From NCBI GenBank assembly GCA_003574845.1, contig NDHY01000005.1, positions 3,342 to 67,341 on the forward strand: a DNA stretch of 64,000 nucleotides, in the 5' to 3' direction. The notes under the pieces were generated by a model. That model did no database searches, was not told where the DNA came from, and worked only from the letters and a program-made list of their open reading frames with translations. Shown here in pieces: positions 3,511-56,150 of this stretch (position 1 is the stretch's first letter; each line of letters begins with the position of its first letter). This DNA is from a candidate division NPL-UPA2 bacterium Unc8 (GTDB lineage: Bacteria > NPL-UPA2). Both the position numbers and the translations under genes were made by a program.

Positions 3511-4989
3511 TCATTCACAGGGATCGGGGATCGGGGATCGGGGATTTGGGCGACCACGCTTTACTCTCAGGTCTTTCCTCGCCCGGGCAAAGACCCGGAT
3601 AATGACTATAAATCCTAATCGCCCGAGAAACATTCCTGCTATTAGGGCAATCTTGCTGCCTGCCGGCATCCCTGTTCCAGTGATTCCTGTTGACAAGCCG
3701 ACGAGAGAAAGCGCTGAGGCAAGTTCAAATAGTGACTCAGATAAGGTAAAACCGTAAGACAAAAAAATAAAGACTCCTACCAGATAAATTATGATATAAA
3801 GGCCAATAAAAGAGGTTACCGCCTGAATTTCTGTATCTAAAATCTCAACCTGCTTTCCTCTCTTCCAGATGAGGCGAGAAACGACTGTTGATGATGAATA
3901 AAACTGTTTTCTTCCCCATCGGCCAATGGACTTAATTATAATGGATACCCGATAAAGCCTCATTCCTCCGGCTGTAGAGCCTACCCCTCCCCCAATTAAC
4001 ATTAGAATAATAAAAAGAAATAGAGTTTTGTCGCTCATATCACCAACGGAAAGAGTGGAAAACCCGCATCCGGTTAAGGCGGTGGCTGCGTGAAAGACAC
4101 CATAGCGGATACCATCCAGAGCTCTTATGTCAAATGTCCTGATTAAGCCAAATGCTATTAAGGGAATGCTTATAACGAGCAGCCATTTCATCAGGATAAT
4201 CTCATTATCCCGAAATCCCATTCGCCCACGACTCCTAATGATCACGTAGTGAGTGGCAAAACTGGTTGCCCCTACCAACATAAGCATTACGCTTACCGCT
4301 TCCATGGGAACACTCTGCCAATAACCAATACTCTCGCTCTGAGTAGAGAATCCTCCCGTCGAAATAGCGCTCATTGTATGGCAAATAGCATCAAAAAAAT
4401 TCATTCCCGCCAGATAATAAAGAATAACCCCGATGATGCTATATCCTAAATAAATCCCGGTAGTAATGCGCGCGGTGCGTATTACATGAGGAAGAAAGCG
4501 ATCGGATTGGGATTCCATCTCATAAGCGCTAGCGCCAGATGGTTTGATGAGAACCGAGCTCATTATGACAATTATTCCTGCCCCTCCAACGAACTGTATT
4601 AAGGCGCGCCAGAATAAAAAAATTGACGGGATTTCCTGCGGTAAGGCGAGCATTGTCAATCCTGTCGTTGTCCATCCACTGGTTGACTCAAACAAAGAAT
4701 CTAATAGTGGCAATATACCTGAGAGAAAAAATGGAAGCGCCCCGAGTACAATAGCTATGAGCCAGATGAGAATTACAATCAGGGAGGCATCGGCTGCTGT
4801 CAAGGCAGGATGCTTCCTTTTGCGAAACCCATACCAGAGAAGGAAGCCACCGATGATGGCAATTAATGCCGGGGTAAAAAAACTCATGGTATGAACCGAC
4901 TCTTCTGGAAAAAAAATGAGGAGGAGCAAGGGAGTGGCGACGACTGCCCCTAATCCCATAGATAAAATTCCGATGGAGTGTCCAATCAT
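3511..4989 (-). CDS. trkH: Trk potassium uptake membrane protein
   Basis: Multi-pass protein with repeated pore-loop motifs ESTSGWTTTGLT, SAISTGGFS, ALTGCGFS, SALSLVGLSTG. Confidence 0.92.
   Translation of the reverse strand: MIGHSIGILSMGLGAVVATPLLLLIFFPEESVHTMSFFTPALIAIIGGFLLWYGFRKRKHPALTAADASLIVILIWLIAIVLGALPFFLSGILPLLDSLFESTSGWTTTGLTMLALPQEIPSIFLFWRALIQFVGGAGIIVIMSSVLIKPSGASAYEMESQSDRFLPHVIRTARITTGIYLGYSIIGVILYYLAGMNFFDAICHTMSAISTGGFSTQSESIGYWQSVPMEAVSVMLMLVGATSFATHYVIIRSRGRMGFRDNEIILMKWLLVISIPLIAFGLIRTFDIRALDGIRYGVFHAATALTGCGFSTLSVGDMSDKTLFLFIILMLIGGGVGSTAGGMRLYRVSIIIKSIGRWGRKQFYSSSTVVSRLIWKRGKQVEILDTEIQAVTSFIGLYIIIYLVGVFIFLSYGFTLSESLFELASALSLVGLSTGITGTGMPAGSKIALIAGMFLGRLGFIVIIRVFARARKDLRVKRGRPNPRSPIPDPCE
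3520..3550 (+). repeat. heptamer array (GGGATCG)x3-4 inside trkH 3' end
   Basis: gggatcg gggatcg gggatcg gggattt. Confidence 0.85.
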
Positions 4990-5024
4990 TTTTATTAAAA
5001 ATTAATAGGATAGATTCTTGTTCT

Positions 5025-5675
5025 TTAAATCACTTTCTTTAGAAGCTCTCTCTTCCCAGGAGCAACTAACAGCAGCACTCTATCATTAATTTCCAGGATG
5101 GTCTCGCTGTGTGGGTATATTGCCTGGTCCTTACGAATAATGGAAACAATAGCGCATTTCTTCGGAAGAAGAATATCGGCAACTCTTCTGTTTCTTCCTG
5201 GTGAATTCTCTTTAATCTCTTTTTCAATAATGGATGCACCCTCCTTTAATGTCAGAAGAGTGATAGTGTCGTTAGTCGGGACTTCTTCTTCAATAGTGGA
5301 AGATATAATACTGGTTGTGCAAACTACGGTAGTAACTCCTCCTAATTTTTTAAATAACTCTTTGTTCTGCGGATTCCTCACGCGAGCAATTGTGTGTGGA
5401 ACCTGAAAATGATGATTGGCAAGCTGGCAGGCTATTAAATTATCCTCATCCTGCCCGGTGAGTGCTATCACTACATCAGCGTCCTCTGCATCAGCGTCTT
5501 CAAAAGCATGAAAGCCTGTTCCATCATCACCGATGACTGTTGCAGAAAGTTCCTTAACTAACTCTTTGCATCTCTCAGGTTGATGCTCAATTATTGTTAC
5601 CTGATGTTTGTTAGCAAGGAGTGCCCTGGCAAGGGAATAACCTATGCCGCCTCCACCAACGATAATAATATTCAT
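5025..5675 (-). CDS. trkA: TrkA-family RCK potassium channel regulator
   Basis: IIIVGGGGIG NAD-binding motif, ADVVIALTGQDEDNLIAC, TrkA-C tail (IYPHSETILEINDRV). Confidence 0.9.
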   Translation of the reverse strand: MNIIIVGGGGIGYSLARALLANKHQVTIIEHQPERCKELVKELSATVIGDDGTGFHAFEDADAEDADVVIALTGQDEDNLIACQLANHHFQVPHTIARVRNPQNKELFKKLGGVTTVVCTTSIISSTIEEEVPTNDTITLLTLKEGASIIEKEIKENSPGRNRRVADILLPKKCAIVSIIRKDQAIYPHSETILEINDRVLLLVAPGKRELLKKVI

Positions 5676-5688
5676 TACAAGATAACCC

Positions 5689-6333
5689 TCAGTATTCTAA
5701 AACTCGCACAAGATGTCCTACTTCACCTTCTGCAATTGCACCGATGACTTCCGAATCAGGAAAAATATCATCTCTTAAGTTGCTTGTTGCCGCTTTTCCA
5801 TCGGTAAGCACAATGTAGGAGTGAAAACTGCCTGCTTTGATTAACTGGGATAAGCCTTTAGCTGCCTGAAATGTGGGTACCTTGAATCTGACAATGTCAA
5901 TTCCTCCAATGCTGCTTATTATCTTTATTTGTTGAGGAGTCTTTATCACCTCAAACAGATGCTCCGCAAGAAGATTAGTTGCAGAAGCTACTTCTAACTC
6001 GTAGTGACGGGACACATCTATCTTCTGTTTGTTCTCTACTCTTACCAGCACGCGATGGACATCAAAAATTTTCTTTGCTATCTGGGCTGATACCAGATTC
6101 ATATTGTCATCGCCGGTGGTGGCTACAAAAATATCAGCATTGTGCGTATTTGCCTCTTTCAGAGTATTCAAATCCGTCCCGCTGCCGAGAATGGTAATGC
6201 CACTAAACTGGACATTCAGGTCGTTAAAGTGCTCCTCAAAGGTATCAATAACGACAACACTGTGCCCTTGCAGAGAAAGAAGATTAGAAAGAGCCGAGCC
6301 GGTCCGGCCACAGCCAACAACAACAACATTCAT
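5689..6333 (-). CDS. trkA: TrkA-family RCK regulator (second copy)
   Basis: VVVVGCGRTG, ADIFVATTGDDNMNLVSA; tandem with the other TrkA. Confidence 0.88.
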   Translation of the reverse strand: MNVVVVGCGRTGSALSNLLSLQGHSVVVIDTFEEHFNDLNVQFSGITILGSGTDLNTLKEANTHNADIFVATTGDDNMNLVSAQIAKKIFDVHRVLVRVENKQKIDVSRHYELEVASATNLLAEHLFEVIKTPQQIKIISSIGGIDIVRFKVPTFQAAKGLSQLIKAGSFHSYIVLTDGKAATSNLRDDIFPDSEVIGAIAEGEVGHLVRVLEY

Positions 6334-55582: not shown

Positions 55583-55604
55583 CGCTTGCTTACTCCCACT
55601 GTTT

Positions 55605-56075
55605 TTACCATCTGTAATGAGCAAAGGCCCTATTTGCCTCAGCCATACGATGGGTATTCTCCTTTTTCTTAACCGCGGCCCCCTCTCCTTTAGCCGCATC
55701 CATAAGCTCCCGTGCCAGCTTCTCTGTTGTCGGAAGTCCTTTTTGACTCCGTGCTGCATCAATGATCCAGCGAATAGCAAGTCTATTTCTCCTATCCGGC
55801 CCAACCTCTACGGGAATCTGATAGGTAGCACCTCCCACCCGACGTGATCTTACCTCCAGGACCGGCTTTGTCCGATCAATCGCCTCGGTGAAAACACCCA
55901 AAGGAGGCTGCTTGGTTTTTTTCTCAATCAAATCAAGAGATGAATAAAAAATAGTTTCAGCAACGCTCTTTTTCCCTTTTCGCATTAAACAGTTAATGAA
56001 CTTGGCAACAAGGTAATTATTATACCTTGAGTCAGGTGGCACCGATCGCTCTTTTACCTCTCTCCTTCTTGGCAT
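55605..56075 (-). CDS. rpsG: 30S ribosomal protein S7
   Basis: [29 protein letters not shown]. Confidence 0.97.
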
Positions 56076-56084
56076 TCTTCCTAC

Positions 56085-56150
56085 CTCTCTACTCTTTAGT
56101 CTATGGTCTATAGTCTATAGTCTATAGTCTATAGTCTATTAGTACTATAG
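56085..56150 (-). repeat. (AGTCTAT)x6 array rpsL-rpsG spacer
   Basis: 56098-56139: agtctat ggtctat agtctat agtctat agtctat agtctat. Confidence 0.9.

Follow-up and report, generated by a model that had tools for sequence, protein, structure and literature searches.

The window analysed here is a stretch of 64,000 nucleotides from contig NDHY01000005.1 (candidate division NPL-UPA2 bacterium Unc8), and this study concerns the tandem arrays of 7-nt and 8-nt units that lie between its genes. Besides ribosomal protein operons, the window encodes a fused RpoB-RpoC protein (2461 aa, 56510-63895, minus strand), RNase Y followed by YmdB, MreBCD, PBP2, RodA, ThyX and an aldehyde:ferredoxin oxidoreductase. 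Arrays were called with Tandem Repeats Finder (TRF), overlapping rows were collapsed before counting, and a gene map based on codon usage separated intergenic from coding DNA. This yielded 27 arrays of period 7 and 10 of period 8, with other periods being rare. An earlier note on this DNA had reported period-7 arrays at many sites, and TRF places them there, from 3520-3545 through 56093-56150. Perfect arrays numbered 15 for period 7, seven for period 8, four for period 5, five for period 6 and none for periods 9-13, whereas 20 dinucleotide-preserving shuffles of the window gave 0.45 perfect arrays of period 7 and 0.05 of period 8.

The arrays are mostly intergenic and extend into the spacers of the ribosomal superoperon, as the same note had claimed. 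Of the 27 period-7 arrays, 20 lie in intergenic DNA, which makes up 4.7% of the window, and so do 585 of the 791 array bases; about a fifth (~20%) of all intergenic bases thus sit in period-7 arrays. Six ribosomal-operon spacers carry arrays (S12-S7, L3-L4, L4-L23, S14-S8, L36-S13 and rpoA-S4). Self-match of the intergenic DNA reached 0.389 at lag 7, 0.347 at lag 14 and 0.325 at lag 8, compared with ~0.27 at lags 5, 6 and 9; the coding DNA of the window had no peak at lag 7. The intergenic lag-7 excess and the shuffle result therefore bear out the excess over neighbouring periods and shuffled controls that had been proposed as a check. Several unit sequences coexist in one genome, with 19 canonical heptamer units in the window. 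The period-7 rows at 20064, 32319, 45531 and 60403 are intragenic, reach 2.1-2.7 copies and are probably due to chance. A CRISPR array was ruled out, the 7-8 nt units being contiguous and without spacers.

Many arrays are parts of larger composite elements. Three spacers (purB-mrdA, argF-thyX and S14-S8) share a common series, (GGCACARA)n, (TAAGTSG)n, TAAGTAGRGAGAGATG, (GAAATTG)n and (TAATTGG)n; listed as unit sequences, the modules behind the octamer array are TAAGTSG, TAAGTAGRGAGAG, GAAATTG and TAATTGG. At its far end the series has one of two terminations, a degenerate octamer in inverted orientation (CTGGTGCTC...TATTTT) or complementary arrays that fold back into a hairpin with a stem of repeats. 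Pairwise similarity between composite copies extends over 87 nt at 90%, 76 nt at 86%, 54 nt at 94% and 21 nt at 100%, and several gaps in their alignment equal one unit (7 or 8 columns). Shorter versions lie behind rodA, argJ and L36. In all six window cases the octamer array begins 0-32 nt past the upstream stop codon, in sense orientation. A second repeat family links 6375-6428 with 14208-14261 (93% identical). These data show that whole composites were copied between unlinked spacers with their module order fixed, and the arrays are accordingly non-independent loci, several being copies of one composite. A single 7-nt register through a whole composite seems unlikely; one register does not appear to be the best alignment of the adjoining unit types in the S14-S8 tract.

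The purB-mrdA composite (15589-15881, plus strand) opens with (GGCACAGA)x5, (TAAGTCG), (AGTAGAG), (GAAATTG)x5 and CTGGTGCAC and continues with (AAGGGTTC)x2.4, (CTTTTAA)x6 and a hairpin at 15813-15878 with TAATTGG-type stem units. Its argF-thyX counterpart (29532-29665, plus strand) runs from the stop codon on as (GGCACARA)x4, (TAAGTGG)x3.7, TAAGTAGGGAGAGATG and (GAAATTG), and closes with (CTGGTGCT)x2.2, a degenerate inverted copy of the octamer. The third composite fills the S14-S8 spacer (45640-45815, minus strand) with (GGCACARA)x6, (GTAAGTG)x3, TAAGTAGGGAGAGATG, (GAAATTG)x2 and (TGGTAAT)x3, and a complementary (TGACCAT)-type arm closes it into a hairpin. Among the shorter versions, an octamer array (AAAGGCAC)x2.5 lies 10 nt past the rodA stop codon (18808-18827, plus strand), a composite 3' of argJ (33843-33996, plus strand) consists of (AAAGGCAC)x4.5, (AAAATCA)x3.4, (AGTGATT)x2.7 and (TTGACTA)x4.6, and the L36-S13 spacer (40262-40327, minus strand) holds (TAGAGAG / TAGAAGAG), (GGCACAAA)x2 and (AGCTGAT)x2.7. 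The sequence GTAAGTAGAGAGTAGAGAGAG at the L4-L23 junction (50567-50587, minus strand) is identical at 21 of 21 positions to 15647-15667 in the purB-mrdA spacer.

Further arrays lie elsewhere in the window. The mreD / tRNA-Val spacer (9430-9489, minus strand) carries (GTGATTG)x5.4 followed by an end module CTGGTGCTCTTGTGCC, and the divergent spacer between an aldolase gene and purB (14149-14261, no strand assigned) carries (TGTTAGG)x4 and (TTCTGAC / TTCTGGC)x5.7. GTGAGTG, GTAAGTA and TGATGAG heptamers lie in the L3-L4 spacer (51235-51275, minus strand), and the S12-S7 spacer (56093-56150, minus strand) contains (ATAGACT)x8, where relatives have other repeats or none. Two tracts are more degenerate. 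The rpoA-S4 spacer (38765-38835, minus strand) forms a hairpin with stem heptamers ACAGGGA TCAGTGG ACAGTGA ... CTGATTA CTGATCC, with a minimum free energy of -35 kcal/mol (z = -5.3) and a divergence too great for TRF; the L16-L29 spacer (47686-47757, minus strand) holds a heptamer tract AAGTCAG GGGTCAG AAGTCGG ... with a small hairpin, which TRF misses as well. Arrays whose unit lacks a stop codon are translated as C-terminal tails. At 3520-3545 (minus strand), the sense-strand array (CGATCCC)x3.7 lies where the TrkH reading frame ends and gives the protein its last residues, ...PRSPIPDPCE (within 3511-3560). Similarly, CAGAAGC / CAGGAGT-type heptamers with an additional 28-nt period (6373-6428, minus strand) encode a 7-aa unit that is repeated at the C-terminus of ribosomal protein L20 (within 6370-6450), and the Pfam L20 model stops at residue 109 of the 136 residues of this protein. 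The sequence at 14222-14261 is a copy of this array at 93% identity.

We found that the earlier list of units stands in part. Several of its members are heptamers, whereas GGCACAA belongs to the octamer GGCACARA (sites at 15589, 18808, 29532 and 33843, and on the minus strand at 40288 and 45754) and GGTTCAA to the octamer AAGGGTTC. The accompanying claim that nearly all units carry an AG/GG dinucleotide at a fixed phase proved weak. AG or GG occurs on some strand of 25 of 26 units, compared with 78.7% of composition-matched random heptamers, and the 'fixed phase' of this weak signature is mostly an artefact of picking the rotation of each unit. The AG/GG phase was rejected as a signature, being largely expected by chance and having a strand bias like that of genes: the sense-strand G-over-C excess of arrays (C 0.16 and G 0.24 in the arrays of relatives) is about the same as the general gene-strand skew.

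The observation that arrays at 15815-15880 and 45650-45712 are followed by their approximate reverse complement proved correct, both being real hairpins (-26.5 and -27.4 kcal/mol, respectively). Imperfect palindromes with repeat stems occur at 15813-15878, 45650-45712 and 38765-38835 and also in relatives. Their fold energies sum to -487 and -474 kcal/mol on the two strands, and equal folding on either strand is as expected of DNA palindromes; RNA-specific structure was rejected on this basis. The 5' part of the composite, in the argF-thyX RNA, is less folded than its shuffles (z = +1.9), which fits a harmless or standby-like spacer and proves nothing. No promoter-like or terminator-like sites were found in those ribosomal-operon spacers that carry arrays, where site counts equal those of shuffles, and an Rfam scan of the window returned the tRNA-Val only. 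The sense unit contains a stop codon in ~16 of 19 co-directional intergenic window arrays, compared with 6 on the antisense strand. A function as 'stop codon in all three frames' was rejected, as relatives give 20 sense versus 18 antisense cases. Phase-variable contingency repeats were also ruled out: the arrays lie in housekeeping operons and their length is constant where substitutions have already accumulated.

The earlier note had described the genome as non-cyanobacterial in appearance, and our data agree. The cyanobacterial rpoC1 model scores under its cut-off on the window, the rpoBC genes are fused, RNase Y is encoded, and the closest named L5 is 64% identical and comes from Nitrospirota. 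The RpoBC fusion is conserved in ~25 protein clusters at 50-91% identity, with the nearest named unfused homologues at ~52-54%, and is thus a marker of an entire uncultured lineage. Gapless matches to the window at 99.9-100% DNA identity occur in GCA_018725355.1 and GCA_018725245.1, in the BS5 and GPS1 metagenome assemblies from the serpentinizing springs of The Cedars, and in several read-set assemblies. Gene content and the matches in The Cedars assemblies thus point to an uncultured, deep-branching, non-cyanobacterial host from serpentinizing groundwater. PheS (1948-3480, minus strand) belongs to the long form typical of archaea and eukaryotes (NCBIfam PRK04172, 567 bits), an unusual find in a bacterium.

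We compared the arrays between populations and relatives. In three near-identical assemblies from other samples, comparison over up to 13.3 kb shows 3-5 substitutions relative to the window and every array free of indels. The arrays therefore appear not to be hypermutable, with a turnover that would fall roughly on the time scale of genus-level divergence. Relatives, defined as genomes with L5 81-83% and RpoBC 86-91% identical, gave together with Cedars contig L069 a total of 72.7 kb, which contains 25 period-7 and 17 period-8 arrays and few of other periods. Period-7 arrays thus pervade intergenic DNA both in the window and in related genomes, in line with the wide presence claimed before. 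The arrays of relatives have other units and lie in other spacers than those of the window. The S14-S8 spacer holds ~180 nt of arrays in the window versus 10 nt in all in relative L129, and at the rpoBC-S12 junction the genes overlap in the window whereas 389 nt of arrays separate them in relative L166; filled and empty sites, as looked for in a miniature inverted-repeat transposable element (MITE), are therefore present at both. The S12-S7 spacer differs in four genomes, with (ATAGACT)x8 in the window, an octamer hairpin in L166, a (GTTGAGTA)n hairpin in L167 and a non-repetitive insert in L169.

Modules are nevertheless shared across the clade and include AAGGGTTC / GGTTCARG, CTGGTGCTC(TTGTGC), GGCACAAA and TAATTGG, and contig L069 shows the same composite design with one module exchanged. 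Relative L129 carries three MITE-like composite copies within 12.8 kb (60-262, 4878-5095 and 12385-12600), all in ribosomal operon spacers. These have a conserved ACGCATTAAATATTTGCACAGC head, arms of complementary heptamers, (AGACATC)n and (AAGTCTG)n, and in two of the three copies an imperfectly matching inverted right end. Terminal inverted repeats of the MITE kind are confined in the window to the degenerate right end CTGGTGCTC. Past window position 64000, contig QLUG01000012.1 (L001 / L002) has two identical tuf copies that flank a nusG-L11-L1-L10-L12-rpoBC-S12-S7-fusA block, and the contig ends at both of them.

Beyond the clade, the pattern (GGCACARA)x2.75 was found in more than 120 metagenome contigs with a GC content from 27% to 63%. 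As a control, IMG/VR yielded 17 GGCACARA stretches, and 6, 3 and 8 stretches of three octamers with permuted letters; with an excess of only 2-5-fold, the octamer's wide occurrence is in itself unremarkable. Among the 67 metagenome arrays with enough flank, 28 have an inverted array 17-398 nt downstream (median ~75 nt) and a single one shows the reverse order, so a polar hairpin element with an octamer array at either end is a common configuration. A same-strand frame ends within 60 nt upstream of 40 of 89 metagenome octamer arrays, and an opposite-strand frame ends just beyond the array in 21 of 89. Period-7 arrays are again frequent in the 741 kb of octamer-bearing contigs, and 137 arrays comprise 123 canonical heptamer units, which argues against a putative sequence-specific reader. 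One metagenome contig with 63% GC (L008) carries at least six inverted pairs of heptamer arrays at 2554-6770, such as GATTGCG/CGCAATC and TGCGGAA/TCCGCA-type, plus an octamer pair, and the same architecture therefore occurs at a very different base composition. In a scan of species-representative genomes, which did not return the genome of the window itself, the 22-mer composite core GAGAGATGAAATTGGAAATTGG had one exact match, in the Bacteroidales metagenome-assembled genome JAIOYV010000093.1 (L006, 4380-4440). The Bacteroidales copy is followed by (GAAATTA)n and more heptamer arrays. Either transfer of a small element or convergence could account for this 22-nt match.

The earlier note had proposed a dedicated generating or binding system with 7-nt geometry, and we looked for candidate machinery. 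The only HUH/RAYT-like gene of the window encodes a Y1 (HUH) transposase of 221 aa (34716-35381), which matches Pfam PF01797 (5.5e-17) and the NCBIfam model for REP-associated tyrosine transposases (73.3 bits, cut-off 80). A perfect 21-nt inverted repeat, TAAAGGGGACAGACACCTTTT (34657-34677 and 35380-35400), brackets the gene; this repeat has no further copy in the window and is unrelated to the arrays, unlike the shared dispersed repeat expected of a REP/REPIN-RAYT system (REP, repetitive extragenic palindromic). Homologues at 70-90% identity, some of them named Omnitrophota transposases, have the same flanking repeat in different neighbourhoods; their loci are essentially free of heptamer arrays (one weak A-rich 7-nt row in ~35 kb). 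Conversely, the 741 kb of array-bearing metagenome loci contain no homologue of the transposase. A link between the RAYT-like gene and the arrays was rejected on the strength of its own unrelated repeats and the essentially array-free homologue loci. No gene family stands out beside the arrays either, and the idea of an array-associated family was dropped: 120 genes adjoining metagenome octamer arrays represent 156 Pfam families, the commonest being two-component signalling domains, and the top 25 families include none of the transposase, HUH or reverse-transcriptase kind. No dedicated system with 7-nt geometry was thus found.

The transposase locus itself, 34657-35400, is a compact unit resembling an insertion sequence, with a consensus TTGACA-17 nt-TATAAT promoter directly upstream of the gene. 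Many homologues lie on short contigs, which suggests a multi-copy mobile element. The locus belongs to an island between argJ and rplQ (33811-37421) with five further open reading frames (34024-34266, 34259-34684, 35550-36212, 36241-36450 and 36471-37217) for which Pfam, NCBIfam and PADLOC gave no match. Both island borders carry the 12-mer GTCAGACCTCAA (33821 and 37341), and the 12-nt tandem repeat (TTTTTCGATGGA)x2.7 lies within the island at 35472-35503.

To our knowledge, no origin or function of heptamer repeats has found acceptance since they became known in 1990. The original narrow definition of short tandemly repeated repetitive (STRR) sequences has a heterocystous cyanobacterium as host. 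According to later surveys, heptanucleotides are the over-represented class of the longer simple repeats in many bacteria, polymerase slippage has been proposed as the cause, and Nostoc and Xanthomonas have a strong intergenic heptamer excess that includes inverted pairs (PMC4679880, PMC4692102, citing Mrazek 2007). The premise of the earlier note that ordinary slippage gives mixed periods is at odds with these surveys, which ascribe a heptamer excess to slippage (PMC4679880, PMC4692102). TAACTGA heptamers in Beggiatoaceae, some Cyanobacteria and Bacteroidetes are intergenic and mostly in forward orientation near start codons (MacGregor 2015, PMC4679880). They occur in ribosomal protein operons, are absent from the same spacers of close relatives and sometimes belong to nearly identical intergenic 'assemblages of heptamer repeats' (PMC4679880). 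A cis-acting RNA role has been proposed for them, and deletions of Nostoc heptamers altered reporter output (PMC4679880; bioRxiv 10.1101/2022.06.06.494920). None of these sources establishes a mechanism (PMC4679880, PMC4692102, bioRxiv 10.1101/2022.06.06.494920). Our full-text literature search for the repeat sequences returned no relevant paper.

We then asked where the window arrays fit among these systems. They resemble STRR sequences and GGGGA(T/C)T of Nostoc PCC 7120 in being 7-nt tandem units, several per genome, that are intergenic, often within operons and sometimes in inverted pairs (PMC4692102), and the window unit GGGGATC is similar to the G-rich units of Nostoc and Xanthomonas. In contrast to STRR sequences, the window arrays have a non-cyanobacterial host, include the octamer GGCACARA in the same elements and consist of modules that are block-copied in fixed order. 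STRR sequences would be expected to differ between strains by length steps of 7 nt; here some gaps between dispersed copies measure one unit, near-identical assemblies show no indels and more distant relatives have wholly different arrays. The likeness to the Beggiatoaceae repeats includes the intergenic position, the ribosomal operons, the absence from the same spacers of relatives and the assemblages of heptamers, but those genomes have one dominant unit whereas the window has at least 19 and no TAACTGA array. With the heptanucleotide excess of Mrazek 2007, as cited in the surveys, the window shares an intergenic period 7 above periods 5, 6 and 9-11 and slippage as the proposed cause; relative to that cited account it differs in its high density, in having period 8 as the second period and in joining arrays into dispersed composites. 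REP/REPIN elements, bacterial interspersed mosaic elements, the pneumococcal BOX (A-Bn-C) and MITEs are likewise small, dispersed, non-coding hairpin elements of intergenic or operon spacers, with ordered module mosaics and variable copy numbers. Unlike them, the window elements have stems and ends built of tandem 7-8 nt units, the RAYT-like gene has unrelated repeats, and no cognate transposase was found. The window arrays fit the heptamer-repeat kind in every tested respect except the host taxon. To the known cases they add units of both 7 and 8 nt, modules in a fixed order and a clade whose sites can be filled or empty.

We favour, with reasonable though far from full confidence, the explanation that these are STRR-type arrays grown by slippage within mosaic hairpin elements, copied between spacers and tolerated as near-neutral DNA. 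Arrays would arise and lengthen through slippage during replication or repair, a process that according to published surveys favours 7-nt units in bacteria. Modules may spread by recombination or gene conversion between arrays, or through a trans-acting transposase, and would persist as near-neutral passengers of transcribed spacers, those of ribosomal operons included; arrays without a stop codon in their unit could survive as brief tails at protein C-termini. The data can be explained without machinery devoted to a 7-nt step, and we found no support for such a system. Several points weigh against the favoured explanation. It does not account for the cause of the 7-nt preference, and no slippage was observed, the near-identical assemblies from other samples having acquired substitutions without any array indel. 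Element boundaries in the window are not sharp enough to define a target-site duplication. The sense orientation of the octamer just past stop codons, in six of six window cases and by 40 to 21 in metagenome contigs, could reflect selection or function at the RNA level rather than neutrality. Finally, the exact Bacteroidales 22-mer seems hard to explain without transfer or a shared constraint.

We grant a modest, minority chance to cis-acting transcript elements, in which the arrays would serve as phased platforms for RNA-binding proteins (S1, cold-shock protein, CsrA or similar) or as unstructured ribosome standby sites that tune the downstream cistron. In favour of this are the position of the arrays in transcribed spacers, the bias of the octamer towards the sense orientation and the weak folding of the composite in its 5' part; in addition, Shine-Dalgarno-like GAGG/GGAG strings recur in modules, and a similar proposal exists for TAACTGA, with the reporter effects in Nostoc cited above. 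Yet unit diversity is extreme, close relatives have unrelated units or no array at the same spacer, the hairpins have no sense-over-antisense advantage, the G-over-C skew of arrays is about that of genes in general, and the sense stop-codon excess of the window was not repeated in relatives. At the DNA level, composites and inverted-end elements were clearly copied between sites, repeat-stem hairpins have similar unit numbers in both arms, and the RAYT-like gene lies 720 nt downstream of a composite; all of this would suit a dedicated system, such as a single-strand transposase of the HUH/RAYT type or some other enzyme that works in steps of 7-8 nt, that makes or moves arrays. We nonetheless think such a system improbable given the inverted repeat that the transposase has for itself, the array-free loci of its homologues, its absence from array-bearing metagenome loci and the lack of a mobile-element family among the most frequent neighbours of arrays. 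A broader idea is that a sequence-independent, length-specific process with a 7-8 nt step builds and symmetrises intergenic repeat-stem hairpins and that distant phyla exchange the process or its products horizontally. Candidates could be certain activities in replication, repair or single-strand transposition, and the phyla would comprise the lineage of the window, cyanobacteria, Beggiatoaceae and Bacteroidota. We give this idea some weight because of the exact Bacteroidales 22-mer, the 28-to-1 polarity of octamer pairs and the similar unit numbers of the arms, and still consider it rather unlikely. Chance or faulty assembly as the source of the arrays is next to inconceivable. Contigs of several assemblies end within arrays, so the repeats do disturb assembly; however, shuffles contain far fewer arrays, and base-for-base the same arrays occur in GCA_018725355.1, GCA_018725245.1 and the Cedars assembly GCA_002581705.1, which derive from different samples and assemblers. 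An assembly artefact is refuted by these independent assemblies.

For genome annotation, these elements carry a warning, as the repeat-encoded C-terminal tails of L20 and TrkH and the contig breaks in such genomes stem from them. The lineage also offers a compact test case. It has little intergenic DNA, a fifth of which is arrays, it carries arrays in essential ribosomal operons, and its composites are copied as blocks. In addition, it provides relatives with filled and empty sites and near-identical populations with stable arrays. Taken together, these features make slippage, mobility and function separable by experiment.

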